Source: a virus (Duplodnaviria; Caudoviricetes). Taken from it: DNA of 54,410 nt. A model generated the notes under the pieces. That model had not been told where the DNA came from. It worked only from the letters and a program-made list of their open reading frames with translations, and did not search any database. Where the stretch lies: IMG/VR virus record IMGVR_UViG_3300029266_000978, positions 1-54,410 of that record; one strand, written 5' to 3'. A program made the translations under genes and the position numbers. This document shows, in pieces, positions 11,373-41,683 of the stretch. The number at the start of each line of letters is the position of its first letter. Positions within the stretch are counted from its first letter, which is position 1.

Positions 11373-12536
11373 ATGGGGAAACCAGGACCAGTACAAACGC
11401 CTATAACAGCGCGTATTAAAAGAACAACACAAGGAGGAATGACTACACAGCCGCTATTAAACATGGGCGCACCTGTAAAAATGAAGCGAACTCCCGCTAA
11501 AAAATCATTAGTAGGTAATCAAGATCAATTACCTGCAAACCTTCAAGCAGACATATTAGCTGCTCCAGGGAAAATGTATGATAAATCGCCAGGGAAAATG
11601 TATGATAGATCGCCAGCTCAAATTTCAGTTGGCAAGAAAGACGAGGCTTCACAAAAAGCTATTAGAGAAGGTCTTCGCGATCAAAAAATTGATGGCTATG
11701 TAAATGATTCTGCTTTTAATGATTCTAATATGGATGGCACTATGGCATCTAGAGCTGTAAAAGGATTATATAGAATGGGCAAAAGAGCGGTACTGCGTGC
11801 TGGCGGACCAGCTGGTAATGCAATGGCTAATATATCTCAAGCAAAAGATAATATGCAAGATAAGCATGATTACAATAATAATCATTATGTAAAGTTTAAA
11901 GGTGACAATCCAAGCTTGTTTACAGGTAATGATGACAAGAAGATGCCAGATGGTGGTTACAATCCAAAGGTTAAGAAAAAAGTTTCATACGATACTGCTT
12001 ATAAAAATAGAGATAAGAAAGTTTACGGAGGTATGGATAAAGCTGCTTATACTAAAGAGGCTAAACGTCAAAATGCTAATTTTAAGAAAACAGGTAAGTG
12101 GGATGTTAAATCTAGTTACGCTAAAAAAGCAGTTGCTAAACCAGTAAATGAAATTAAGCCAACTGGTGTTACAAATAAAAAAGTTGAAATTACAACTAAA
12201 TTAGATCCTAAGGTAATAAAGAAACAAGTTTCTAAAGTTAATAAAACTCCTAAAGAAACTTCATCTAGAGCCGCTAAGTTAAGAGCTAAAGGTAATGCTC
12301 AATTAGCAGCAGGTGACACAAAAGGAGCTCAAAGAACAAGAAAAAAATACGATAGAAAGAACGCAAAGGTTGCTAGAAAAACTAAAAAAGGTACTAATAG
12401 AGTGGAGTATGACGAAAGTACTGGTAAAGGTGGAAGTGTATTAGGTAATGCACTTAGAACTGTTACAGGTAAAAGAAAAAGAGATAAAGCTGCAGCAGAC
12501 AGAAGAAAGAATGCTCCAGGAGGAAGCATGATTTAA
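11373..12536 (+). CDS. Highly basic hypothetical protein with SP/AP-K-M repeats
   Basis: 387 aa, Lys-rich, with PITARIKR and repeated PGKMYD. Confidence 0.7.
   Translation: MGKPGPVQTPITARIKRTTQGGMTTQPLLNMGAPVKMKRTPAKKSLVGNQDQLPANLQADILAAPGKMYDKSPGKMYDRSPAQISVGKKDEASQKAIREGLRDQKIDGYVNDSAFNDSNMDGTMASRAVKGLYRMGKRAVLRAGGPAGNAMANISQAKDNMQDKHDYNNNHYVKFKGDNPSLFTGNDDKKMPDGGYNPKVKKKVSYDTAYKNRDKKVYGGMDKAAYTKEAKRQNANFKKTGKWDVKSSYAKKAVAKPVNEIKPTGVTNKKVEITTKLDPKVIKKQVSKVNKTPKETSSRAAKLRAKGNAQLAAGDTKGAQRTRKKYDRKNAKVARKTKKGTNRVEYDESTGKGGSVLGNALRTVTGKRKRDKAAADRRKNAPGGSMI
11565..11616 (+). repeat. 24-bp tandem repeat encoding PGKMYD(K/R)S
   Basis: ccagggaaaatgtatgata(a/g)atcg twice, followed by ccag. Confidence 0.9.
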
Positions 12537-14815: not shown

Positions 14816-15035
14816 AGAACTTATTAAAGTAGCTAAGGAGGCTATTGTTGATTCAGGAGAAGATATTACAGCGGATAGATTAAAGAATGCAGCGGCAACT
14901 AAAAAGCTAGCTATATTTGATGCGTTCGAAATTCTTAACAGAATACAAGAGGAGCAAGATATTCTTGATGAAAAACCTAGAGAAATAAAAGAAGAAGAGT
15001 CTTTCAAAGGTTTTGCTGAAAAAAGATCTAAATAA
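14760..15035 (+). CDS. Putative terminase small subunit
   Basis: Helical 91-aa protein (RLKNAAATKKLAIFDAFEIL) with TAATG overlap onto the large subunit. Confidence 0.6.
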   Translation: MNIKETKKNIILAGHKAVEELIKVAKEAIVDSGEDITADRLKNAAATKKLAIFDAFEILNRIQEEQDILDEKPREIKEEESFKGFAEKRSK

Positions 15036-17248
15036 TGTACAAGCAAACATTATATAAAATAATAACTCCTGTCAAATCAAACACTATATCTAGGCTAAAT
15101 AAAGCTAAGAAGTGGGAATATGGTTATAACAAAGAACACGATATTGTGGTTATAAGCAAGACAGGACAAATAGGTGATATATATAATATACAAAATCTTA
15201 AAATAGCATTACCTAAAAGACCATCTAAAATAGATGATTCTACTAACAAGTGGACACCAGAAGAATATCCTAAAGAGTTAAAGGCTATTAATAGCATATT
15301 TGACTGGAGGGATTATCCTGAAACGTTCAAATTAAAATGGGGACAATACATAGATGAGCAATTTAATAAAAGAGAAAACGGTTACTGGTTCAATAATAAG
15401 GGCTTGGGTACTTACATTACTGGTACTCACTTTATGTACCTGCAGTGGTCCAAGATTGATGTTGGGCAACCAGACTTTAGAGAATCAAATAGATTATTCT
15501 ACATTTTCTGGGAAGCTTGTAAAGCAGACAGACGATGTTATGGTATGTCATATCTCAAGAATAGACGTAGCGGCTTTTCATTCATGGCGTCTGGCGAGAC
15601 CGTTAATATGGCCACGATATCAAGTGATGCACGGTTTGGGATTTTGTCCAAATCTGGCGCCGATGCGAAAAAAATGTTCACTGATAAGGTTGTACCCATT
15701 AGTGTTAACTTCCCGTTTTTCTTTAAACCAGTACAGGATGGGATGGACCGCCCAAAGACCGAACTCGCCTATCGTGTACCCGCATCAAAATTTACCAGGA
15801 GGAGACTCGATAATAATAAAGCCACTGAAACCATCGCCGGTCTGGACACGACCATCGACTGGAAGAACACAGGTGATAACGCCTATGATGGGGAGAAACT
15901 CAAACTCCTCGTCCACGACGAAAGTGGTAAATGGGAAAGGCCGAACAACATCCTCAACAATTGGCGTGTTACCAAAACGACATTAAGATTAGGTTCTAGA
16001 ATTATTGGAAAGTGTATGATGGGATCAACATCAAATGCTTTAGATAAAGGTGGTTCAAATTTTAAAAAGTTATATAACAATTCAAACGTATTAAAAAGAA
16101 ACAAGAACGGGCAAACAGCTTCAGGATTATATTCTCTTTTTATTCCTATGGAATGGAATTATGAAGGATTTATTGATGAATATGGATATCCTGTTTTTGA
16201 TACACCTAAAGACACTGTTCTGGGCCCGTTTAAAGACGTTATAGACGTTGGGGTTATTGAGCACTGGAATAATGAGGCTGAAGGATTAAAGAGCGATCAG
16301 GATGCTTTAAATGAATTTTATAGACAGTTCCCAAGAACAGAGGAACATGCGTTTAGAGATGAAACAAAAAATAGTATATTTAATTTAGTTAAAATATACG
16401 AACAAATAGATTACAATGAGGACTTACATAATACAAATGTATTAACAACTGGAAGTTTTCAATGGGCTAGCGGTATAAAAGACTCTACAGTTTTATTTAC
16501 GCCTAATCCAAATGGTAGATTTAAAATATCTTGGGTTCCTGGTGCAAATTTGCAAAACAGGCAAGAGGTTAGAAAAGGATTAAGAATTCCAGGTAATCAA
16601 CATATGGGTGCTTTTGGTTGTGATAGTTATGATATATCAGGAACAACTGATGGCCAAGGATCTAAGGGTGCTTTGCACGGATTGACTAAATTCAGCATGG
16701 AAGATGCTCCCGCTAATACATTTTTTTTAGAGTATATAGCTAGACCACAAACCGCTGAAATGTTTTTTGAAGATGTACTAATGGCTTGCGTATTTTATGG
16801 TATGCCTTTATTATGTGAAAATAACAAACCAAGACTTTTATATTATTTTAAAAGAAGAGGCTATCGAGGATATTCTATGAATAGACCTGATAAGGTTTGG
16901 AATAAGTTATCGGTTACCGAAAGAGAAATAGGTGGAATGCCTAACTCAAGTGAAGATATTAAGCAAGCTCATGCAGCGGCTATTGAAACATATATTGATA
17001 ATTATGTCGGATTACAAGAAGATGGTCAGTATGGAACAATGTATTTTAATAATACATTAAATGATTGGGCAGGATTTGATATAAACAATAGAACGAAGTT
17101 TGATGCTGCTATAAGTTCTGGACTTGCTGTAATGGCTTGTAACAGACATTTATATCATCCAAAACAAAAAGTTGAAAGAGAACAATTAAGTTTAAAAATA
17201 GCTAAATACACCAACAGTGGTGGTTTATCAAAATTAATAGAAAAATAA
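15035..17248 (+). CDS. terL: Terminase large subunit
   Basis: Walker A-like KNRRSGFS, Walker B LLVHDESGK, coupling motif GSTSN, and nuclease GCDSYD...FDAAIS. Confidence 0.92.
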   Translation: MYKQTLYKIITPVKSNTISRLNKAKKWEYGYNKEHDIVVISKTGQIGDIYNIQNLKIALPKRPSKIDDSTNKWTPEEYPKELKAINSIFDWRDYPETFKLKWGQYIDEQFNKRENGYWFNNKGLGTYITGTHFMYLQWSKIDVGQPDFRESNRLFYIFWEACKADRRCYGMSYLKNRRSGFSFMASGETVNMATISSDARFGILSKSGADAKKMFTDKVVPISVNFPFFFKPVQDGMDRPKTELAYRVPASKFTRRRLDNNKATETIAGLDTTIDWKNTGDNAYDGEKLKLLVHDESGKWERPNNILNNWRVTKTTLRLGSRIIGKCMMGSTSNALDKGGSNFKKLYNNSNVLKRNKNGQTASGLYSLFIPMEWNYEGFIDEYGYPVFDTPKDTVLGPFKDVIDVGVIEHWNNEAEGLKSDQDALNEFYRQFPRTEEHAFRDETKNSIFNLVKIYEQIDYNEDLHNTNVLTTGSFQWASGIKDSTVLFTPNPNGRFKISWVPGANLQNRQEVRKGLRIPGNQHMGAFGCDSYDISGTTDGQGSKGALHGLTKFSMEDAPANTFFLEYIARPQTAEMFFEDVLMACVFYGMPLLCENNKPRLLYYFKRRGYRGYSMNRPDKVWNKLSVTEREIGGMPNSSEDIKQAHAAAIETYIDNYVGLQEDGQYGTMYFNNTLNDWAGFDINNRTKFDAAISSGLAVMACNRHLYHPKQKVEREQLSLKIAKYTNSGGLSKLIEK
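15354..15986 (+). CDS. Candidate overprinted (+1 frame) lipoprotein inside terminase
   Basis: 210 stop-free codons, hydrophobic WVLTLLVLTLCTC signal and a local shift to C/G-ending terminase codons. Confidence 0.5.
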   Translation: MSNLIKEKTVTGSIIRAWVLTLLVLTLCTCSGPRLMLGNQTLENQIDYSTFSGKLVKQTDDVMVCHISRIDVAAFHSWRLARPLIWPRYQVMHGLGFCPNLAPMRKKCSLIRLYPLVLTSRFSLNQYRMGWTAQRPNSPIVYPHQNLPGGDSIIIKPLKPSPVWTRPSTGRTQVITPMMGRNSNSSSTTKVVNGKGRTTSSTIGVLPKRH

Positions 17249-17252
17249 AAAT

Positions 17253-19682
17253 ATGGCTGAGTCAGTTGTAACAAGTTATTTTCCAAGCCAGATTGCTAGC
17301 GATGCGGAAAAAATGTCTATGGACTATGGAACTACTATTGGTAGAGCTATAGAACGTGAGTGGTTTAATAATGACAATGGTGGTGGTAGTAGGTTTAAAA
17401 GCAATCAAATTACATTTCACAATTTAAGATTATACGCAAGAGGAGAACAACCAATACAAAAATACAAAGATGAATTATCTATAAATGGAGATTTATCTTA
17501 TCTTAATTTAGACTGGAAACCAGTTCCAATTATACCCAAATTTGTGGATATAGTTGTTAATGGTATATCTGATAGATTATTTGACATAAGAGCTTATTCT
17601 CAAGATCCTTACGGAGTTGATAAAAGAACAAGGTATATGGAATCTCTTATTAGAGATATGCAAACAAAAGAACTTAATACTTTTGTTCAAGAAAATTTTG
17701 GTGTTAATTTATTTGAAAACAATCCAGAAACATTACCTAAAAACAAAGAAGAATTAGATTTACATATGCAGCTTACCTATAAGCAGCAAGTAGAAATTGC
17801 GGAAGAACAAGCAATACAGGTACTACTAGATGGTAACAAATATGACTTAACTAAAAGACGTTGTAATTATGATTTAACTACAATAGGTATTGGTGCAGTT
17901 AAAAATACTTTTACAAAAGCTGAAGGAGCTTTAATTGATTATGTAGATCCAGTAAATTTAATTTGGTCTTATACAGAATCACCTTATTTTGATGACATAT
18001 ATTATGTAGGAGAAGTAAGGTCTGTGCATTTAAATGAATTAAAAAAAGAATTTCCTGGATTAACTAATGATGAATTGCAATCAATTGCAGGTCAGTCAGT
18101 TAGTAACAATGGGTTTTATGATAGAACTATTAGCACTTCTAACCAGGACGATTCCAATACTGTTCAAGTCCTTTATTTTAATTATAAGACTTTTACAAAC
18201 GAAGTTTATAAAGTTAAAGAGACGGCAACAGGAGCTGCAAAGATAATACCTAAAACTGATGAATTTAATCCTCCGCCAGAAATGTATGAGGAGTATGGTA
18301 TTGAAAAATTATCTCAATCAATAGAAGTATTATATGAGGGAGTTAAAGTTGTAGGGGGCAGAATGCTTAAATGGGAGCTAGCTAAAAACATGATAAGACC
18401 TAAGAGTGATTACACTAAGGTTAAAATGAATTATAGTATTACAGCACCTAGAATGTATAAAGGTAGAATAGAATCTGTAGTAAGTCGTATAACAGGCTTT
18501 GCAGATATGATTCAACTTACACATTTAAAGCTACAACAAGTAATGTCAAGAATGGTGCCGGATGGTGTTTATCTTGATGCTGATGGTTTAGCTGAAGTTG
18601 ATTTAGGTAATGGTACAAATTACAATCCTCAGGAAGCTCTTAATATGTTTTTTCAAACAGGTTCTGTAATTGGTAGATCTATGACCCAAGACGGTGATAT
18701 GAATCCAGGCAAAGTACCTATTCAAGAAATACAAACCGGTGCAGGTGGTGGAAAAATGCAAGCATTAATTGGAAATTACAATTATTACATGCAAATGATT
18801 CGCGATGTAACTGGATTAAACGAAGCTAGAGATGGAAGTACTCCTGACGCAAGAGCTTTAGTGGGTGTTCAAAAAATGGCAGCAGCTAATTCAAATGTTG
18901 CAACAAGACATATATTAGACGGTAGTTTATTTTTAACGTCGGATTTATGCGAAGGGTTATCATTAAGAATATCCGATATTTTAGAATACTCTCCAACACG
19001 AGATGCTTTTATACATAAAATAGGTAATCAAAATGTAGCAGTTCTTGAAGAAATGAAAGACTTATATTTATACGACTTTGGTATCTTTATTGAATTACAA
19101 CCAGATGAAGAAGAAAGAGCTATATTGGAAAACAATATTCAAGCAGCTGTTCAAAGCGGATTAATAGATTTATCGGATGCCATTGATCTTAGAGAAGTAA
19201 GAAGTCTTAAACTTGCTAATCAATTGCTAAAAATAAGAAGAGTAGCTAAGCAAAAGCTGGATCAAGAAATGCAACAGCAAAACATCCAAGCTCAGGCTCA
19301 AGCCAATGCTCAAGCACAACAAGTGGCTGCTCAAGCAGAAGTTCAAAAAGGCCAAGCTTTAATACAACAAAAAATTGCATTAGTGCAAGCTCAAGCAGAA
19401 ATAGACAAACAAAAAATGATGCAAGAAGCTGCTTTGAAAAAAGAGTTAATGCAATTAGAGTTTGAAATGAACATGCAGCTTAAAGGTATTGAAGTTAGCG
19501 GGGTTAAAAGAGAAATTACGGAAAAAGAAGATAGAAAGGACGAAAGAACTAAACTACAAGCTTCTCAACAAAGTGAACTAATACAACAAAGACAAAACAA
19601 TTTGCCAGCTCAAAACTTTGAATCAAGTGGATTTGATACAATGGGCGGTGGTTTTAACTTAGGTTCGTCAGACCCTAGGTAA
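17253..19682 (+). CDS. Portal protein
   Basis: 809 aa following terL, with IIPKFVDIVVNG, IRDVTGLNEARDG and a Gln-rich C-terminal coiled coil. Confidence 0.88.
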   Translation: MAESVVTSYFPSQIASDAEKMSMDYGTTIGRAIEREWFNNDNGGGSRFKSNQITFHNLRLYARGEQPIQKYKDELSINGDLSYLNLDWKPVPIIPKFVDIVVNGISDRLFDIRAYSQDPYGVDKRTRYMESLIRDMQTKELNTFVQENFGVNLFENNPETLPKNKEELDLHMQLTYKQQVEIAEEQAIQVLLDGNKYDLTKRRCNYDLTTIGIGAVKNTFTKAEGALIDYVDPVNLIWSYTESPYFDDIYYVGEVRSVHLNELKKEFPGLTNDELQSIAGQSVSNNGFYDRTISTSNQDDSNTVQVLYFNYKTFTNEVYKVKETATGAAKIIPKTDEFNPPPEMYEEYGIEKLSQSIEVLYEGVKVVGGRMLKWELAKNMIRPKSDYTKVKMNYSITAPRMYKGRIESVVSRITGFADMIQLTHLKLQQVMSRMVPDGVYLDADGLAEVDLGNGTNYNPQEALNMFFQTGSVIGRSMTQDGDMNPGKVPIQEIQTGAGGGKMQALIGNYNYYMQMIRDVTGLNEARDGSTPDARALVGVQKMAAANSNVATRHILDGSLFLTSDLCEGLSLRISDILEYSPTRDAFIHKIGNQNVAVLEEMKDLYLYDFGIFIELQPDEEERAILENNIQAAVQSGLIDLSDAIDLREVRSLKLANQLLKIRRVAKQKLDQEMQQQNIQAQAQANAQAQQVAAQAEVQKGQALIQQKIALVQAQAEIDKQKMMQEAALKKELMQLEFEMNMQLKGIEVSGVKREITEKEDRKDERTKLQASQQSELIQQRQNNLPAQNFESSGFDTMGGGFNLGSSDPR

Positions 19683-19713: not shown

Positions 19714-20880
19714 ATGTCAGAACAAACAGAAGAACAAGTACCTGCTGTTGAAGAAATCAAAGCAGAAGAATCAAAACCTATGTCGGTGGAAGATGGTGTC
19801 ATCAAAGTAGATTTAGGTCAACTAAACAAACTAAACGAAGATGCCAATACAAAGCAAGAAACAGCAGACGTGGTTGCAGATCAACCAACCGAGCCTGTAC
19901 AAAAAGTGGAAGAAGAAATACCACAACAACCAGACTCCGTTCAAGATGCTCCCCAATCAGTTATTGAAGAAATAACAGAAGAAGAAATAGAAGAAAAAGT
20001 AGAAACAATAGCAGAAGAAATTCAGCAAGCTGTTGTCGAACAAGATCTTGGAGTTCCATTACCTGAAAATATTCAGAAGGTTGTTGAGTTTATGGATGAA
20101 ACCGGCGGAAGCTTGGAAGATTACGTAAAACTAAATACAGATTATTCGTCTTTAAACGATAATCAATTATTAAGAGAATTCTACGAAAATACAAAACCTC
20201 ATTTAGATAGAGAAGAGATTGACTTTATAATGGAAGACAATTTTTCTTATGATGAAGAGGTTGATGAAGAAAGAGATATACGTAGAAAAAAATTAGCAAG
20301 AAAAGAAGAGCTAGCAAATGCTAAGAATCATCTAGACGGCTTAAAAAGTAAGTACTATAAAGAAATAAAAGCTGGAACTAATTTAGCTCCAGAAACAAAA
20401 AAAGCGGTAGAGTTTTTCAACCGTTATAATAATGAAAAACAAGAAGCAACCAAAGTAGCTGAACATCAAGTGTCTACGTTTAATGCTAAAACAGAAAAGC
20501 TTTTTTCCAATGATTTCAAAGGTTTTGATTTCAATGTTGGCGAAAAGAAATTTCGTTACAAAGTAAATAACGCAGACCAAGTAAGAGACACCCAAGGAGA
20601 TATCAATAATTTTGTCAAGAAGTTCTTGAACGATAAAAATGAAATGAATGACGCCGCGGGTTATCACAAGTCTCTATTTACAGCTATGAATCCAGATGCA
20701 ATTGCAAAACACTTTTATGAGCAAGGAAAAACCGATGCCATGAAAACAAGCGTAACTAATGCAAAGAATATTGATATGAGTCCGAGAGGGGTTCATGAAA
20801 ACGTCAAACATTCTACAGGAACTACGTTTAAGTCTATTACATCTAAAGGTTCTTCGAAGTTTGGAATAAAACAAAGATAA
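19714..20880 (+). CDS. Capsid scaffolding protein
   Basis: Very acidic N-terminus, located between portal and capsid genes. Confidence 0.7.
   Translation: MSEQTEEQVPAVEEIKAEESKPMSVEDGVIKVDLGQLNKLNEDANTKQETADVVADQPTEPVQKVEEEIPQQPDSVQDAPQSVIEEITEEEIEEKVETIAEEIQQAVVEQDLGVPLPENIQKVVEFMDETGGSLEDYVKLNTDYSSLNDNQLLREFYENTKPHLDREEIDFIMEDNFSYDEEVDEERDIRRKKLARKEELANAKNHLDGLKSKYYKEIKAGTNLAPETKKAVEFFNRYNNEKQEATKVAEHQVSTFNAKTEKLFSNDFKGFDFNVGEKKFRYKVNNADQVRDTQGDINNFVKKFLNDKNEMNDAAGYHKSLFTAMNPDAIAKHFYEQGKTDAMKTSVTNAKNIDMSPRGVHENVKHSTGTTFKSITSKGSSKFGIKQR
19841..19975 (+). CDS. Candidate overprinted (+1 frame) 44-aa basic peptide inside scaffold gene
   Basis: MPIQSKKQQTWLQINQPSLYKKWKKKYHNNQTPFKMLPNQLLKK with an A-rich leader. 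Confidence 0.55.
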   Translation: MPIQSKKQQTWLQINQPSLYKKWKKKYHNNQTPFKMLPNQLLKK

Positions 20881-20901: not shown

Positions 20902-22320
20902 ATGGCAGGATCATTTACAGGTAGTGTTGGCGCATTGGCGCATTTAACACCAAGACCTACACAATCGTTGTTTAACGACAACTACCTATCTCTAGCAGAT
21001 ATGGATTTTACACAACAATTTTTACCAGAAGTATATGAAAAAGAAGTAGAAAGATACGGAAACCGTACTATCTCTGGATTTTTACGTATGGTAGGAGCAG
21101 AAATGCCTATGGCTTCAGACAGAGTAGTATGGTCTGAGCAAGGTAGATTACACATTGCATATGACCCAGTTGTTATAACAGCTACAACTGTAGTTATTCC
21201 AGCAGGACCAGGTGCAGTATCACAAAATCTTATTGGACCTGGAGCTACTATCGTATGTTCTAGTGCTAACGGATTAGTAGTTGAAAAAGCTTATGTACAA
21301 AGTGTTGCAGTTGCATCAGGAGTTGCTACATTAACAGTAGCAGGTTACAAAGGAAATCTTACGGCTGTTGCAGCTAATGGAAAGATATTTGTATACGGTT
21401 CTGAATATGCAAAAGGAACTTCTAACGCAGGTACTTCAGTTGACGCTGCTTTCGAACAGTTTAGCAACAAACCTATTATCCTTAGAGATAAATACAATGT
21501 AAGTGGTTCTGATACTGCTCAAATTGGGTGGGTTGAAGTAACTACTGAAGCTGGAACTTCTGGATACTTATGGTATTTAAAGTCTGAGCATGAAGCTAGA
21601 ATTCGTTTTGAAGATCAATTAGAAATGGCTATGTTAGAAGCAGAAACTGCAACTAACCCTATTACTGCGGGTGCAGGTTTTGGTTCTGCAGGTACTATTA
21701 CAGGTTCTGATGGGCTTTTTGCTGCATTAGAAACTAGAGGACTAGTTTATTCTGATACTGATTTTGGAGGAGCAACTGGATTAGCTGATTTCGATACTAT
21801 TTTACAGGAGCTTGATAAGCAAGGAGCTATTGAAGAGAACATGATGTTCTTAGGAAGAGGTACTGCTTTAGCTATTGACAATATGTTAGCTGCTCAAAAT
21901 TCTTATGGAACTGGAGGAACTTCTTACGGAGTATTTAACAATTCAGAAGATATGGCACTTAACTTAGGGTTTAGTGGTTTCCGTAGAGGATCTTATGATT
22001 TCTACAAAACTGACTGGAAATACTTAAATGACGCTACTACTCGTGGATTAATTGATGATATTGACGGTGTAATGGTTCCAGCTGGAACGTCTACAGTATA
22101 TGACCAACAATTAGGACAGAACATTTCAAGACCATTCTTACATATTCGTTATAGAGCTTCTGAAGCTGACGATAGAAAGATGAAATCTTGGATCACTGGA
22201 TCTGTTGGTGGAAACTATACAAGCGACGAAGATGCAATGAACGTTCACTTTTTATCAGAAAGATGTTTATGTGTACAAGCAGCAAACAATTTTGTGTTGT
22301 TAAAGAAAATAGCAGCATAA
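20902..22320 (+). CDS. Major capsid protein
   Basis: 472 aa after the scaffold gene, high-expression codon usage and a terminator immediately downstream. Confidence 0.85.
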   Translation: MAGSFTGSVGALAHLTPRPTQSLFNDNYLSLADMDFTQQFLPEVYEKEVERYGNRTISGFLRMVGAEMPMASDRVVWSEQGRLHIAYDPVVITATTVVIPAGPGAVSQNLIGPGATIVCSSANGLVVEKAYVQSVAVASGVATLTVAGYKGNLTAVAANGKIFVYGSEYAKGTSNAGTSVDAAFEQFSNKPIILRDKYNVSGSDTAQIGWVEVTTEAGTSGYLWYLKSEHEARIRFEDQLEMAMLEAETATNPITAGAGFGSAGTITGSDGLFAALETRGLVYSDTDFGGATGLADFDTILQELDKQGAIEENMMFLGRGTALAIDNMLAAQNSYGTGGTSYGVFNNSEDMALNLGFSGFRRGSYDFYKTDWKYLNDATTRGLIDDIDGVMVPAGTSTVYDQQLGQNISRPFLHIRYRASEADDRKMKSWITGSVGGNYTSDEDAMNVHFLSERCLCVQAANNFVLLKKIAA

Positions 22321-35134: not shown

Positions 35135-38100
35135 ATGGCAGAGAACATTTTAAAAAACATATGGAACGAATTATCTTCAAAAGGTAAAACGGATTCAGAC
35201 TTTGATTCATGGCAAACAAATCTAAATGAAAATGAAGATGTGCAAGCTAATGTATACAATTATTTAAAAGATAACGATTATACAAAAAGCGAATTTAGCG
35301 AATGGAAAAGCAATGCTCTTGTAGCAAAGACAAACGACTCTGCAAGTGCGAATCCAAGTGTGGAGTCAGGAAAAAAAGATACGGGATTCAAATCGGAAAA
35401 TACTTTATCGGATTCACCTATTGAAAAAAATACTTGGTTAGAAAACTTTTTAGGCGAAAAAGAAGATGCTGAAGACAAACTGTTTGGTCTTGTTGATTTT
35501 GTTAGTGATACATATAGAGCTGTAAAAAGCGGAATATCTACAGGAGCAAGTGTTGATGAATCTTTTGACTTATTTAATAAGGGCAGTAATATGTCTGATC
35601 AAGAAGTTGAGGATTTAATAATAGCAGGTAGACGAGTAGAAAACGCAGGAATGTCTAAAGAGCAACTTGAAGCTTCCGCTAAAATGGCTAAACTAAAGGA
35701 AGAAGGCTACACAGGCATGGGTGCTTTTATGGGTGCTTATTGGGATAATCCTTCCGCTTTAACTAGCATGTTTGTTTCTTCTCTTTCTATGATGGCTGCC
35801 AGTTTTATAGATAGCGGCGAGGTTAGAGCTAGTTCCGCAGCAGGATCAGGAGCAGGAGCCACAGCAGGTGCAGGTGCAGGTGCGGGAGTTGGAGCATTAT
35901 TTGGCGGTGTTGGTGCATTACCTGGAGCAGCAATAGGTGCTAAGCTAGGAGCAGTAAGTGGAGCTATGAGTGGAATTACCGCTGCTATGGAAACAGGTCT
36001 TACAACCGCTCAGCTTCTTCAGGAATCGGCTGAAGAAACAGGTGTCGAGTGGGGGGCTATGGATGATAAGCAAAGAATAGCTTATGTAAGGGAACTTACT
36101 TCTGATAAAGAAAGATTTAATGATATAACAAACAAAGCTTTAGCAAGAGGTTTGACAATAGGAAGTGTTGATTTTGCAGTTAACATGGCTACTTTTGGAA
36201 CTGGAAAACTTGTTTTTGGAGCGGTAAGTAAAAGTGCAGCAAGTGCTTTAACAAAGCCAATAACAGGATTAGCCGCTGGTTCTGTTGAAACAGTAGGATC
36301 AGGTTTTGGTGAATATTTAGGTCAAAAAGCTGCTGGTCAAGAATATAACTTTGAGGAAATTGCTTTAGAAGCTTTCGCTGATAAATCAGCAACAATCGTA
36401 ACGGCTGTTAAAGGCATGAAAAAAGGCAATCCTTCTTATTCTATTAACGGGCAAAAAATGAATGGTAAGCAAATGTCCGATGCTTTAAAAATTATGGACG
36501 ATTTGTCTTATGTAAAAGCTGACATTAAAATTGATGATTCTCCAGCTGTACAAAAAATAGTAGACAATAGAAGACAAAACATATCTGCAGATCAACAAGT
36601 AGATAGTAGGATAAATGATGTAAAGGATAGAACAGAAGCTATAAAGTTAACAAAAGAATACGATAAATTAAAAGGCAATAGAGAAGGTAATAAAACTAAG
36701 CTTGCACAAATACAAGAAAAGCTTACTATTATTTCAGATAAATATACTAATTCACAGATTGATGCAACAATAGATCAAAGACAGAAAGCTGTTGCTGAAG
36801 CTGTTGAAACTAAATTTGAAGAAAGTTTTAATAAAAATGTTAAAGCTCTTACAGATGCTCAAGAAGAAATAGGCGTAGAGCCTGTGGTTTTTGAAAATGA
36901 TGAATCTTTTTATAGTGAAACATCTAAAGAATTAAATATTACTGAAGAATATTTAAAAGAAAATGCTGTTGATGGTATATTTGTTGGGAACGGTAAAGTT
37001 TATATAAATAAAGCGCAAGCTAAAAGAAGTATAAATATTGCAACTGGAAACACAGGCGCAATATCCGTTGCAAGTCACGAAGTATTGCATCCTATATTTA
37101 ATGCTTTAATTGGAGGAGCTAAAACGCAAGGAGAATTTGTTAAGCAGTTTAGAACAAGAATGACTGGTAAACAAAAAACTTATGTTGACGCGCAATTAAA
37201 GGAAAGAGGATATACTAAAGAGGTTACAGGTATTGAGCTTATGAATATTTTTTCAGATGGTATAATTAAAAATGAAATAACATACGATCAAACATTCTTT
37301 GAAAAGTTAGGTGATAATATTATAAGATTATTTAAAGGGCAAGGCTTTGATAAATTATCTTTTGATAACGGTAAAGAAGTATATAACTTTCTTAAAGAGT
37401 ATAATACAAGTATAAAAGCTGGTAAATTAAGTGACAAAGCTATATCTACTATAAAGAAAGCTGAAGTTGAAAAGAAAACTAAAGTTGCGGATGCTAAGCT
37501 ATTACAAGAAGAACAATTTTCAAAAACATTAACACCTGAGCAAAGCGCTGAAACATCAGCCGATATAGCTAACATTAAAAAATTAGCAGAAGAAAATGCG
37601 GCGTTGGCTAAAAAGTATAATAAGGAACCTATAAAATCTCCTAAGCAAACTAGATTAGAACAGAAAGTTTTATCAAGCATTAAAGAAATCATAGACAAAG
37701 TTGTTACAAATAGAACAAAAGCTTTATATGATCCTATTGCAGATGATGCAAAACGAAATGTAACTAGAGATTCATTTAAAGAATCTATGCGTAGTGACAT
37801 TGAAGCTATGGTTTTGAACGAGTATAATGGTTCTCAGGAATTAGAAAAATTTATAGTAAACAGAAGTTACTTAAGAGCAAACGATTTAGCTAAAAGATTA
37901 GGTATTGAATCTCAAGAAGACGGAGGTATAAAATCTGATGTAGATTCCGCTAAAAATATAACTAACACAAAAGATGAACAAACAATTGATCGTAGTGGTA
38001 CAGTAGAGCGTGGCCAGGCTACATTTGATGAGCTTGATATTGTTGATGATAAACTTATATCAGAAATAGAATCAGAGTTAGATAGAGAGCTTAAAACACG

Positions 38101-41100
38101 CGCATCTAAAGGCACATTATCTGAAATGATTTCAGTTAAAAGAGGTAGAGAAATTTATCTTATATCTTGGCTAGAAAATTATATAGATAAAACATTATTT
38201 AAAAAGATTTTAAAAAAATGGGGAGCTATTGGTGAATCTAAAGGTAAGGTTGTTATACCTGCTGGTTATATAGATTTTTTAAATAGTAAAAAAGCTTTTG
38301 ACATTGTTACTAAAGCATTGCCTATAAAAACTATTAAAAAAAGTTATAGTAATTTATTTAAAATAGAAAGATTAGGTAGAGAATTAACACCTGAAGGTAA
38401 TCCTATATATAAAATACCACCTATAAATAAGAAAACTTTTTTAACTTATTTTCTTGACGGTAAAAAGAATACTATATTAGAAAGACAAAAGCAATTAGCT
38501 AGAGAAATAATAACGCCTGTTACTAAAGAACTTATTGCGGAGTATGCTACTGAAGAAAATATTTCTAAATTAGTAGCAAGACAATCTATAGCTCCTGAAA
38601 CTGCTGTAGATATAGCTAATAAAATAGTTATCGATGCCCAAATAAACGATTTAGAATCTAAGATTGATAGATACAAAGGGGAAACTAAAGGTTTTGATAT
38701 TATACAGTTTTCTAAAAACAATAATTTACAAGGATCTGATTTAAGGGATAAAAAAGGAACTTATAATATTTACGCAGCTTCTAGGCTTGATGCAGATAGC
38801 GCAGCGTTTTTAAAGTTTCCAGCTAGAATAAAGAATTTTATATATGATTTAATTGATAAGGGCCGACTTACAGGTAATGCTTTTGGCGGAGTTGTATATG
38901 AATCTTTAGTGTTAAAGACTTTAAAATCTGCAGCTAGAAATATACCTGGCTTAAGTATTATAACAAAAGATAAAAAAGGTCAACAAGGATCTAAAGGTTA
39001 CGATAGCACTGGAGGAGGTGATATTGATATTGTATTTACTAAAAAGAATGGTAAAAAAATAAAAATACTATTAGAGATTAAAAAGAATGCTAAAGTTAGA
39101 TTTGGCCAAGTAACATTAGGTATAGAAGATGGTATAGTTATATTAAGAAAAAATGGTGATAAATTAGATCCGACTACTATACCTGGAGGAGTAAGCTTAG
39201 TGGCTAGAGCACAAGAAGGTTCTGCTAACTTACAAAAAATATTAGATATAGTAAATAAAGAAGAAGGAACAAATATTAAATCTATTCCTTTAAAAACTTC
39301 TATAAGTAAAAAAACTTATGAGAAAGCTGTAAATTCAAAACCTTATAAAGATTTTATAAAATTAACAGAAGAGTTAGATAAATCAAGAGTAGCTGATCAT
39401 TATAATAAAAAAGGCGTATACTATATACAAATAGGAGGCAAGGGTTTATATTTTATGGGAAAAGATATACATAATTTAGGCGTACCTGAATTAGATGCAT
39501 CTTTTAGAGGAACAGTTCGAGTTAAAAGAGGATCTGTTCAACAAAAAGGTACGGTTTACATGAGCTTAATATCTGAACCAAAAATTGTTGCTAGTACTTT
39601 AAAAAATTCTCCTTATACTCTTGAGACAAAAGAAGGTATTGAAAAAGTATTTAATCAACCGCTATTACAATTATCTAGATCATTGAATGAAGACTTTAAT
39701 GATATAGTTGAAGGTGCAACAAATATAGACAGTAAAAAAAGATATTCTGATGCTAAAGGTAAAGTAAGAGGTAGAAACAAAGGTAAGTTTAAGTTTTTTA
39801 TTCCGCCATCTGCAGATGATTTTGCAGGTTTGGTTAGTAGGCTCTTAGGTAAAGGTAAAAAAGGAGATGCTAATGCAGCTTGGTTTAAAGAAAAATTATT
39901 TAATCCTTTTGCTAAAGGTATTAGAGATTTTGAATCTTATAAGCAACAAACTACCGCTATGGTAAAAGCCTTAAAGAAGCGTGTTAAAAACATTCCTAAA
40001 GGTTTATCTAAAATAGGAGATACTGGATTTACAAATGAAGCTGCAGTAAGAGTATATCTTTGGGCTAAAGCAGGTGTTGAAATACCTGGTTTATCTAAAA
40101 CAGATCAAAAAGAATTAATAGATTTAGTAGAAAATAGCCCAGGCTTATTAGGGTTTGCTAATGAATTAGAACAAGCTTTTAATGGTTATCCAGAGCCGGA
40201 TAATGGATGGCTAGCAGGTACGGTTACTACTGATATTATTAACATGGTTAATACCGCTAAGAGAGCTGAATTTTTACAAGAATGGCAGGACAATGTGGAT
40301 GTAATCTTTTCTAAAGAAAATTTAAACAAACTTAGGGCGGCATATGGTGATAATTATGTAGAAGCTATGGAAGATATGCTTTACCGAATGAAGTCTGGTA
40401 GAAATAGACCTTCTGGAGCTAACAAGCTTACTAATAAATTTATGAATTGGATAAACGATTCTGTAGGTACAATAATGTTTTTCAATACAAGATCAGCATT
40501 ACTACAAACATTATCTATAGCTAACTTTATTAACTGGGGAGATAATAATCCCGCTAAAGCTGCTGCAGCTTTTGCTAATCAAAAACAATTTTGGTCAGAT
40601 TTTGCAATGTTATTTAACTCTGATTTTCTTAAACAAAGAAGATCTGGTTTAAAGAATGATGTGAATGCAGATGATATTGCTAGTGCAGCAGAATCTGCAA
40701 CTAATAAATCAAAAGCAGTATTATCTTCTATATTAAAAATGGGATTCTTACCTACACAAATGGCGGATAGTTTTGCTATTGCAATGGGTGGTGCATCATT
40801 TATAAGAAATAGAATTAATAAATACAAGTCCGAAGGACTAGACACTAAAGCTGCTGAAGAACAAGCTTTCTTAGACTTTCAAGAAGTAGCAGAAGAAACA
40901 CAACAATCGTCTAGACCTGATAGAATATCACAACAACAAGCAAGTCCATTAGGACGTATTATATTAGCTTTTGCAAACACCCCTATGCAATACATGAGAT
41001 TAACGAAAAAAGCTTTCTTAGATCTTAAAAACAATAGAGGTGATCCTAAATCTAATATATCCAAAATAGTTTATTATACTTTTATTCAAAACGTTATATT

Positions 41101-41683
41101 TTCTAGTTTACAATCAGCATTATTTGCAAGTTTAGCATTAGGCGATGACGAAGAGGAAATGGATAAGAAGGAACTTAGAATAGCAAATTCAATGATGGAT
41201 ACCATACTTAGAGGTTTAGGTATTTATGGAGCTATAGTTTCTACTGGTAAAAATATAGTAATGGAAATTGATAAACAATCGAAAGCTGACAGACCTGATT
41301 TTACTAAGGCTGCAGACAAGGTTTTGGATTTATCACCTCCTTTATCTTCTAAGATAAGAAAGTTACAAAGTGCTGGTAGAGCATTTAGTTATTCTAAGAT
41401 TAGAGATAGAATGGTTGGGTATGGCTTAGATAATCCTGCTTTTTATGCAGGTGGCCAAGTAGTGTCTGCTTTAACAAATCTTCCTGTAGATAGAGCTATT
41501 AAAAAAGCGGATAATATAAGAGTAGCTATGGATAATGATACTAAATTATGGCAATCAATAGCACTAATGTTAGGTTATAGTCAATGGGATTTAGGATTAA
41601 TTGAAACAGGACCTAAGAAAAAAGGTTTTGGAAAAGTAAAAGAGTGGAAAAGAAAGTGGAAAAAGTCTAATTGGAAGAAATAA
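35135..41683 (+). CDS. Large polyvalent internal virion / ejection protein
   Basis: 2182 aa with a glycine zipper (GAGATAGAGAGAGVGALFGG), zincin HEVLH, a PD-(D/E)xK-like segment and a helical C-terminal domain. Confidence 0.8.
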   Translation: MAENILKNIWNELSSKGKTDSDFDSWQTNLNENEDVQANVYNYLKDNDYTKSEFSEWKSNALVAKTNDSASANPSVESGKKDTGFKSENTLSDSPIEKNTWLENFLGEKEDAEDKLFGLVDFVSDTYRAVKSGISTGASVDESFDLFNKGSNMSDQEVEDLIIAGRRVENAGMSKEQLEASAKMAKLKEEGYTGMGAFMGAYWDNPSALTSMFVSSLSMMAASFIDSGEVRASSAAGSGAGATAGAGAGAGVGALFGGVGALPGAAIGAKLGAVSGAMSGITAAMETGLTTAQLLQESAEETGVEWGAMDDKQRIAYVRELTSDKERFNDITNKALARGLTIGSVDFAVNMATFGTGKLVFGAVSKSAASALTKPITGLAAGSVETVGSGFGEYLGQKAAGQEYNFEEIALEAFADKSATIVTAVKGMKKGNPSYSINGQKMNGKQMSDALKIMDDLSYVKADIKIDDSPAVQKIVDNRRQNISADQQVDSRINDVKDRTEAIKLTKEYDKLKGNREGNKTKLAQIQEKLTIISDKYTNSQIDATIDQRQKAVAEAVETKFEESFNKNVKALTDAQEEIGVEPVVFENDESFYSETSKELNITEEYLKENAVDGIFVGNGKVYINKAQAKRSINIATGNTGAISVASHEVLHPIFNALIGGAKTQGEFVKQFRTRMTGKQKTYVDAQLKERGYTKEVTGIELMNIFSDGIIKNEITYDQTFFEKLGDNIIRLFKGQGFDKLSFDNGKEVYNFLKEYNTSIKAGKLSDKAISTIKKAEVEKKTKVADAKLLQEEQFSKTLTPEQSAETSADIANIKKLAEENAALAKKYNKEPIKSPKQTRLEQKVLSSIKEIIDKVVTNRTKALYDPIADDAKRNVTRDSFKESMRSDIEAMVLNEYNGSQELEKFIVNRSYLRANDLAKRLGIESQEDGGIKSDVDSAKNITNTKDEQTIDRSGTVERGQATFDELDIVDDKLISEIESELDRELKTRASKGTLSEMISVKRGREIYLISWLENYIDKTLFKKILKKWGAIGESKGKVVIPAGYIDFLNSKKAFDIVTKALPIKTIKKSYSNLFKIERLGRELTPEGNPIYKIPPINKKTFLTYFLDGKKNTILERQKQLAREIITPVTKELIAEYATEENISKLVARQSIAPETAVDIANKIVIDAQINDLESKIDRYKGETKGFDIIQFSKNNNLQGSDLRDKKGTYNIYAASRLDADSAAFLKFPARIKNFIYDLIDKGRLTGNAFGGVVYESLVLKTLKSAARNIPGLSIITKDKKGQQGSKGYDSTGGGDIDIVFTKKNGKKIKILLEIKKNAKVRFGQVTLGIEDGIVILRKNGDKLDPTTIPGGVSLVARAQEGSANLQKILDIVNKEEGTNIKSIPLKTSISKKTYEKAVNSKPYKDFIKLTEELDKSRVADHYNKKGVYYIQIGGKGLYFMGKDIHNLGVPELDASFRGTVRVKRGSVQQKGTVYMSLISEPKIVASTLKNSPYTLETKEGIEKVFNQPLLQLSRSLNEDFNDIVEGATNIDSKKRYSDAKGKVRGRNKGKFKFFIPPSADDFAGLVSRLLGKGKKGDANAAWFKEKLFNPFAKGIRDFESYKQQTTAMVKALKKRVKNIPKGLSKIGDTGFTNEAAVRVYLWAKAGVEIPGLSKTDQKELIDLVENSPGLLGFANELEQAFNGYPEPDNGWLAGTVTTDIINMVNTAKRAEFLQEWQDNVDVIFSKENLNKLRAAYGDNYVEAMEDMLYRMKSGRNRPSGANKLTNKFMNWINDSVGTIMFFNTRSALLQTLSIANFINWGDNNPAKAAAAFANQKQFWSDFAMLFNSDFLKQRRSGLKNDVNADDIASAAESATNKSKAVLSSILKMGFLPTQMADSFAIAMGGASFIRNRINKYKSEGLDTKAAEEQAFLDFQEVAEETQQSSRPDRISQQQASPLGRIILAFANTPMQYMRLTKKAFLDLKNNRGDPKSNISKIVYYTFIQNVIFSSLQSALFASLALGDDEEEMDKKELRIANSMMDTILRGLGIYGAIVSTGKNIVMEIDKQSKADRPDFTKAADKVLDLSPPLSSKIRKLQSAGRAFSYSKIRDRMVGYGLDNPAFYAGGQVVSALTNLPVDRAIKKADNIRVAMDNDTKLWQSIALMLGYSQWDLGLIETGPKKKGFGKVKEWKRKWKKSNWKK
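35326..35389 (+). promoter_or_regulatory. Candidate -1 programmed ribosomal frameshift signal (A_AAG plus pseudoknot)
   Basis: In-frame GCA AAG, 6-nt spacer, stem GACTCTGCA/TGTGGAGTC, and loop GAATCC complementary to downstream GGATTC. Confidence 0.5.

Follow-up and report, generated by a model that had tools for sequence, protein, structure and literature searches.

A candidate gene for a small basic protein embedded in the +1 frame of a scaffold-position gene of a tailed phage

The embedded reading frame and its protein family

The tailed-phage record IMGVR_UViG_3300029266_000978 of IMG/VR (Duplodnaviria; Caudoviricetes) was analyzed over positions 1 to 54,410, and this whole stretch of 54,410 nucleotides (nt) is referred to here as the window. 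It contains a gene of 388 codons, called the host gene below, within which lies a short open reading frame (ORF) on the same strand and in another frame. The features of the locus are:

19714–20880, + strand: host gene, 388 amino acids (aa), with an acidic N-terminus; located after the portal gene and before the major capsid gene; putative scaffold or structural protein
19816–19840, + strand: A-rich leader of the embedded start, with no Shine-Dalgarno sequence
19832–19834, + strand: TAA in the +1 frame, two codons 5' of the embedded ATG, closing the +1 frame upstream
19841–19975, + strand: candidate embedded gene of 44 codons plus TAA, with an ATG start, in the +1 frame of the host gene 19714–20880

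The embedded ATG is offset from the host start by 127 nt (19841−19714), which places it in the +1 frame, and the dual-coding part of the host gene is codons 43–88. The nested ORF was put forward in an original prediction made from this DNA, and it is present among the listed ORFs at 19841–19975, in the +1 frame and with the same translation. The translated product is MPIQSKKQQTWLQINQPSLYKKWKKKYHNNQTPFKMLPNQLLKK (44 aa), which has ten Lys and Arg residues, no Asp or Glu, and an isoelectric point (pI) of 10.5. Residues 1–115 of the host protein are acidic, with 33 Asp and Glu, seven Lys and Arg, and a pI of 4.05; this contrast is near-automatic, because GAA-rich DNA is read one base later. The 20 nt preceding the ATG are ACTAAACAAACTAAACGAAG, so that the A-rich leader described in the original prediction reads as stated. 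We put the probability at about 0.85 that ORF 19841–19975 is a genuine gene, embedded on the same strand and in the +1 frame within an acidic, poorly conserved N-terminal linker of the host gene. The ORF lies wholly inside the longer one, has its own start, and both frames are maintained by selection.

The predicted peptide has relatives that stand outside any longer gene. A phmmer search with the 44-aa sequence against 1.84 billion representatives gave nine matches at E≤1e-3 (best 2.5e-13); all nine align from residue 1, start MPF(K/Q/R)(S/N), and carry an IN.P..Y..W pattern, and most are basic and 36–69 aa long. The likeness to phage proteins of the MPFKSxKQ...NxP...KKW..KY type, which the original prediction had suggested, is therefore real, and the free-standing homologues named as a check were found both by phmmer and by profiles. 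Profile A1, which combines nested and free-standing members, matches 88 proteins of 30–121 aa at E≤1e-3, none of which carries a Pfam domain. Profile A2, built mostly from free-standing members, has a sole match in six frames of the 54-kb window, at 19841–19996 (E 1.4e-12). With a hidden Markov model (HMM) made from 25 verified free-standing peptides only, the embedded ORF scores 18.6 bits (E 1.3e-4), and the next six-frame segment scores 4.9. When the synonymous codons of the host gene were shuffled, 0 of 3000 sequences reached 18.6 bits with either of two methods (null maxima 10.9 and 11.7 bits), so the family resemblance is no by-product of the host protein sequence.

In an alignment of 102 sequences (A3), M1, P2 and Q8 are invariant and F3, S5, K6 and P17 are found in at least 90%; the window peptide keeps M1, P2, S5, K6, Q8 and P17, and it has the size and shape of the family, with 44 aa, two predicted helices and a Lys-rich tail. 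The predicted peptide belongs to a widespread and unnamed family of basic phage proteins of 30–60 aa, which we call the MPFKSKxQ family. Many nested relatives end in an (S/A/R)PFKM-like sequence, similar to the TPFKM of the window peptide. The original prediction had used this motif, as (S/A/T)PxKM, to propose kinship with several free-standing basic proteins of the same genome. The motif does recur in the window, three times in ORF 11373–12536 and once in a spurious ORF, but this amounts to one real protein rather than several, and a degenerate five-residue pattern shared with a single other protein does not support kinship. ORF 11373–12536 (+ strand) encodes a basic protein of 387 aa (pI 10.3), with its three [AS]PxKM motifs near the N-terminus.

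The family is represented in part among the PHROGs by phrog_1375, of unknown function, which is matched by the peptides of three of four nested relatives that are closer to the canonical form than the window (L025, L005 and L052; E 2.6e-6 to 5e-3) in alignments spanning most of their length; the L010 peptide is unmatched. No Pfam match at E≤1 was obtained for the window peptide, the nested relatives or the free-standing members, and no Pfam family passes curated cut-offs in the free-standing proteins P0002–P0009, the best sub-threshold match being DUF7416 (E 0.0018, P0006). An Atlas search returned only unnamed small viral clusters. The nearest Atlas cluster bearing any Pfam family has DUF3008 on 15% of its members (score 0.81), which we treat as a lead only. 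DUF3008 (PF11450), a possible relative with a similar SKAQ-type N-terminus, gave no match at E≤1 to the peptide or to the nested and free-standing members, and none at E≤0.1 in P0002–P0009. A word-indexed search with the single window peptide yielded no candidate, and tblastn with the same query, run with low-complexity filtering, found nothing in 50,697 phage records. A tblastn search with free-standing P0013 gave no match, and with P0063 one weak match (E 0.06) to Synechococcus phage S-CBS2, in both its GenBank and RefSeq records. This match (NC_015463.1:34225–34296, L168) lies between gp045 and gp046, where no gene is annotated, and may be a small gene missed in the annotation.

We found no paper on the MPFKSKxQ family or its embedding in a search that did not cover supplementary files, nor does the string MPFKSKAQ occur in the literature searched. 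For overprinted or nested genes associated with scaffold or capsid genes, the portions of the literature available returned only Microviridae and general overlapping-gene papers, and the available portion of a Flavobacterium-phage paper (PMC7077304, supplements not covered) does not mention the elemo phages discussed below.

Conservation and constraint in the two frames

The host gene has at least 599 relatives in IMG/VR, and the best 80 of them (52–98% identity) form, with the window, an unbiased set of 81 genes. Four classes are distinguished by the state of the +1 frame:

Class A, 32 of 81: intact canonical +1 ORF in the same position, some 14 codons downstream of a conserved VIKVDL motif
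Class B, 11 of 81: recognizable broken copy, with the ATG lost or with internal stops
Class C, 23 of 81: variant +1 ORF with another N-terminus and a homologous 3' half (LTTxEWL type)
Class D, 15 of 81: no +1 ORF

Examination of the +1 frame in related host genes, also named as a check in the original prediction, thus finds the ORF conserved, in canonical form in 32 of 81. The class C ORFs encode 40–47 aa over host codons ~45–95 (L026, L030, L033, L036, L038, L040, L044 and others), and in one complete class C genome (G004) no canonical family member was found at E≤1. The LTTxEWL-type ORF is probably a functional variant that has diverged.

Two further scans took the peptide family as their starting point, each covering 80 loci and each partly overlapping the first set of 80 host-gene relatives. 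In the first, 47 loci lie in the +1 frame of homologues of the present host gene, a further three lie in the +1 frame of an ORF of ~2200 aa, three form the N-terminus of proteins of 192–198 aa, and 27 are free-standing in unrelated contigs. In the second, 57 loci are nested in scaffold-size homologues of the host gene and four in giant ORFs, all in the +1 frame; 15 are not nested, comprising nine small free-standing genes, three N-terminal domains of larger proteins, and three in which the host ORF is split or cut; and four have no motif ORF. A second copy was sought in the genomes of five relatives without the canonical ORF; none was found, but these records are only 38–50% complete and the negative carries no weight.

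The diversity of the host gene changes where the two frames overlap. In 71 canonical host genes the nucleotide diversity at third codon positions (pi3) is 0.20–0.30 across the overlap and 0.50–0.57 elsewhere, and the ratio of third- to first-position diversity (pi3/pi1) falls below 1 (0.62–0.90) in the overlap only; the 31 unique canonical genes of the unbiased set have the same pattern. Because the wobble position of the +1 frame is position 1 of the host codon, a dip in pi3 is the pattern expected if the +1 frame is the more constrained of the two. The dip is deeper in 22 class C genes (pi3 0.09–0.21, versus 0.34–0.41) and absent from the same region of 14 class D genes (0.38–0.49), and in 11 class B genes pi3 is 0.39–0.45 over most of the overlap and 0.29 at its 3' end. 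The class B and D lineages, which are of like composition, can serve as internal negative controls. Of 1953 pairs, 75% show better conservation in the +1 translation than in the host frame; in a control segment 0% do.

Recent substitutions follow the same direction. Between the window and its 97–98% identical relatives L001 and L002 there are four distinct differences in the overlap, and all four occupy the first position of host codons, altering the host protein and leaving the peptide unchanged; elsewhere in the host gene most changes are host-synonymous, 16:6 and 11:7. Each of the 120 complete homologues collected keeps the host frame free of stops along the overlap, whereas the corresponding register carries stops in 26 of 27 free-standing family genes, so the open host frame of the nested copies is also maintained. 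On these comparisons the +1 frame is under purifying selection in the phage lineage while the host frame is kept open. In the alignment of host proteins (A4), the only invariant or near-invariant residues of the variable acidic linker are A44, Q48, V53 and V65 (window numbering); A44 overlies Met1/Pro2 of the peptide, and V53 and V65 overlie its two Trp codons (GTG G giving TGG).

A FastTree tree was computed from the non-overlapping C-terminal part of 113 host proteins, the other seven of the 120 having no anchor motif. This unrooted tree includes 39 rows that were chosen because they have the ORF; within it, canonical copies occur in all major clades and broken or absent copies are scattered. 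The simplest reading of this distribution would be an old embedded gene with repeated loss.

Initiation, predicted fold and other genomic settings

The 39 gene starts of the window lack Shine-Dalgarno sequences and have A/T-rich leaders, with an A fraction of 0.5–0.7 at −16 to −3, which fits a phage of Bacteroidota. The leader of the embedded ATG has an A fraction of 0.52, as compared with a mean of 0.51 at these starts and of 0.36 over all 581 ATG triplets between 15 and 42 kb, 7.7% of which reach 0.52 or more. A +1 stop is present 0–9 codons upstream of the ATG in all 71 canonical genes, so that a frameshift occurring before this short stretch would not bring a ribosome into the ORF, and free-standing homologues start at exactly the same Met as the embedded ORF. 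Together the near stop and the matching Met favor independent initiation over a frameshift fusion. The position of the ORF, inside the host gene and on its strand, makes it plausible that the two are co-expressed, and we infer internal initiation on late mRNA at the embedded AUG. The peptide would be made from the late structural message by Shine-Dalgarno-less initiation at its own AUG behind the A-rich leader, in a manner resembling that of other genes of the phage, which would make it available when and where heads are assembled.

The gene order around the host gene is that of a head module:

15035–17248, + strand: large terminase subunit gene (phrog_6681, E 3.9e-164)
17253–19682, + strand: portal gene (phrog_6547, E 2.9e-148)
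20902–22320, + strand: major capsid or virion structural protein gene (phrog_13704, E 2e-99)

The closest cultured relatives are the Flavobacterium podophages vB_FspP_elemo (Elemovirus). The 388-aa host protein has no PHROG or Pfam match, and its elemovirus homologue aligns over residues 116–375 only and is annotated simply as 'structural protein'. The label 'scaffold' used in the original prediction agrees with the order portal–X–major capsid protein and finds no counterpart in either database; it is a positional assignment, given that the elemovirus match is partial and its annotation no more specific.

AlphaFold2 (AF2), run with the 102 aligned sequences, predicts helices at residues 6–15 and 17–28 joined at the conserved Pro17, with a mean predicted local distance difference test (pLDDT) score of 81.6, followed by a Lys-rich, flexible tail of low confidence. 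A Foldseek search of the model against BFVD gave nothing at E≤0.001, the best matches (E 0.36–1) being unnamed small viral proteins. Profile matches to PDB sequences were to the designed beta-propellers Cake, Bagel and Scone; they were rejected as spurious, being sums of repeats of ~4 bits of which no single stretch passes. When the host protein (A4) and the peptide (A3) were modeled as a complex, the score was 0.00 (mark 0.32), which speaks neither for nor against an interaction.

The named neighbors of free-standing family members are mostly head or packaging genes. Members adjoin the portal gene (L127 and L129), the major head protein gene (L113, L127, L135 and L143) or the large terminase gene (L145, L088, L160 and L147); one (L136) is beside a glycosyltransferase gene, and many neighbors have no PHROG match. 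These neighborhoods, together with the helix–Pro–helix and the Lys-rich tail, lead us to favor a nucleic-acid-binding role in packaging or in the capsid, and we suggest tentatively that the peptide might bind nucleic acid as a DNA-packaging accessory or as a charge-neutralizing passenger of the capsid.

The family is also found inside a second type of virion gene. In the cultured Flavobacterium phage vB_FspP_elemoF_6-3D (NC_055853.1) the scaffold-position gene has no +1 ORF, and an unannotated family member lies instead at NC_055853.1:52379–52513 (L167), in the +1 frame of a 'structural protein' gene of 3694 aa. Seven other contigs (L156–L158, L169, L219, L232 and L248) have a family member in the +1 frame of a giant ORF, and the giant ORFs with embedded copies span from 1477 aa or more to 3694 aa. 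That of L232 is a 26%-identical homologue of window ORF 35135–41683, in which no embedded family copy was found. Elsewhere an N-terminal module of the family, of ~30 residues, heads larger proteins with unrelated C-terminal parts: L139, L150 and L151 (192–198 aa), L205 and L238 (160 aa), and L245 (427 aa), with further examples in P0045, P0047 and P0048 (115–121 aa).

One could picture a portable embedded gene, a small basic head-module coding sequence that has repeatedly come to overlap, in the +1 frame, parts of virion genes that encode acidic, disordered segments: the scaffold-position gene in the window and a giant structural gene in elemoviruses and other phages. What would keep it in place is pairing between the basic peptide and the acidic segment of the host protein, both translated side by side from a single mRNA, by which a fixed dose of a DNA-neutralizing passenger would be loaded into the procapsid. 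We regard this scenario as unlikely.

Alternative explanations, known systems and meaning

Several observations weigh against a genuine embedded gene, and its support is wholly comparative. The length of the ORF is not convincing by itself: over the first 150 host codons, with 5000 shuffles per method, a +1 ATG-initiated ORF of at least 44 codons arises with P=0.033 under codon-usage resampling and P=0.099 when the host gene's own synonymous codons are permuted. The atypical host codons that the original prediction had pointed to are indeed rare in the phage (GTG 6% of Val, ACC 6%, TCC 4%, GCC 5%, CCC 4%) but are not enriched in the overlap (6 of 46, versus 48 of 334 in the remainder of the host gene; Fisher P=1.0). 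The embedded ATG has a G at −1, seen at none of the 39 window gene starts. At residues 3–4 the window peptide departs from the family consensus (I and Q); it has no PHROG match (best phrog_552, E 0.12), and the phrog_1375 model finds nothing in the whole phage record at E≤10. No structural or sequence match in the Pfam, PDB, BFVD and Atlas searches gives it a function. The ORF also appears to be dispensable or replaceable, with 11 degenerate copies, 15 absences and 23 variants among the 81 genes, and well-supported branches of the host tree force at least 10 changes of state.

If the gene is real it could still have another role, as a cationic, membrane-active late lysis peptide on the model of phiX174 E or of the phiKT gp28 disruptin, and this we consider rather improbable. 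The disruptin is a cationic lysis peptide, according to its description (10.1101/515445). The window peptide has no hydrophobic segment, its AF2 model is a confident, compact helix–Pro–helix hairpin, and no sequence relation to any lysis protein was found; the free-standing relatives examined sit beside terminase, portal and capsid genes, and no lysis gene was identified among the neighbors scanned.

Alternatively, a free-standing gene may have been swallowed when the host start moved upstream, leaving a relic that is recognizable and no longer translated in the window phage. Decay of this sort is seen in the 11 class B relatives, some of them close to intact ones (L021 beside L019, L015 beside L023), and the imperfect start context would fit it as well. 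The copies in the window, L001 and L002 are intact, however, and the four substitutions that separate them spare the peptide at the expense of the host protein; intact copies are under strong constraint, broken ones under little or none. A relic is for these reasons somewhat more improbable still than a lysis role.

The ORF might be there by chance, an acidic, GAA-rich and stop-poor stretch read one base later and coding for nothing. Its length is only marginally unusual, its basic composition follows automatically from the acidic host codons, rare codons are not enriched, and 26 of the 81 relatives lack an intact ORF. Chance would have to account as well for a profile score that no synonymous shuffle attains, for homology to free-standing proteins from residue 1 onwards, for constraint on host third positions confined to the overlap and to lineages with an intact ORF, and for four of four recent substitutions being silent in the +1 frame. 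The family match and the conservation across relatives are far beyond chance, and we think this explanation very improbable.

A product of frameshifting is just as improbable: a +1 slip near an A-rich run would yield a fusion of the host N-terminus to the basic peptide, and no separate small protein. Runs of A6–A8 do occur just before the ATG in many relatives, and among public gene calls P0010, P0014 and P0033 fuse the host N-terminus in frame to the peptide and P0031 fuses the peptide to downstream host sequence. (These four calls may reflect indels in A-runs, assembly errors or natural frameshift variants.) The +1 stop, 0–9 codons before the ATG in every canonical gene and two codons before it in the window, leaves a shift site hardly any space, no A-run precedes the ATG in the window, and the ATG and Pro2 are invariant, with free-standing homologues starting at the same Met. 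The least probable alternative is an RNA or DNA element (a structure or binding site) that constrains host third positions in place of a second protein, for while suppressed synonymous variation alone is silent on what is selected, the variation here is codon-like in the +1 frame with its third position the most variable, that frame is open from a conserved ATG to its stop, and its product is homologous to free-standing proteins.

Embedded genes are familiar in phages, and the candidate described here can be compared with several of them. In phiX174 the lysis gene E lies in the +1 frame of the external-scaffold gene D, which makes it the nearest positional analogue of a +1 gene embedded in a scaffold-position gene. 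E encodes a membrane protein in a 5-kb single-stranded DNA phage with extreme genome compression, whereas the present candidate belongs to a tailed double-stranded DNA phage of ~55–60 kb and has a predicted soluble, basic product with free-standing relatives. Small basic proteins that bind or package DNA in phage heads include phiX174 J and the T4 internal proteins. The predicted peptide resembles them in size, charge and association with head genes, and they serve as the model for the role suggested above; no sequence or structural similarity to phiX174 J or the T4 internal proteins was found.

The arrangement is also like that of lambda Rz1 within Rz, in which a small gene, encoding the o-spanin, lies wholly within a larger one on the same strand and in another frame, over a flexible linker of the host protein (PMC6139136). 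That spanin survey describes embedded, overlapped and separated gene architectures, with no single family spanning the embedded and separated ones. The MPFKSKxQ family, by contrast, has free-standing members as well as members embedded in two different host genes. It differs further from the o-spanins, which are lysis lipoproteins, in its head-module setting, its unrelated sequence and its predicted soluble, basic helix hairpin.

Embedding as such is known in phages; what the family would add is three arrangements of one gene—free-standing, within a scaffold-position gene, and within a giant virion gene—which opens a way to study gene overlap by capture or escape rather than by birth de novo. 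Since gene callers skip ORFs nested in longer ORFs, the gene has gone unannotated across a large group of Bacteroidota-type podophages from marine and fresh waters, among them the cultured elemoviruses, whose copy lies inside the giant structural gene. It would provide a clean natural example of dual coding in a tailed double-stranded DNA phage, with more than 100 independent sequences and with ORF-loss lineages as negative controls, and it points to what may be a widespread and as yet uncharacterized small protein of phage head and packaging modules.

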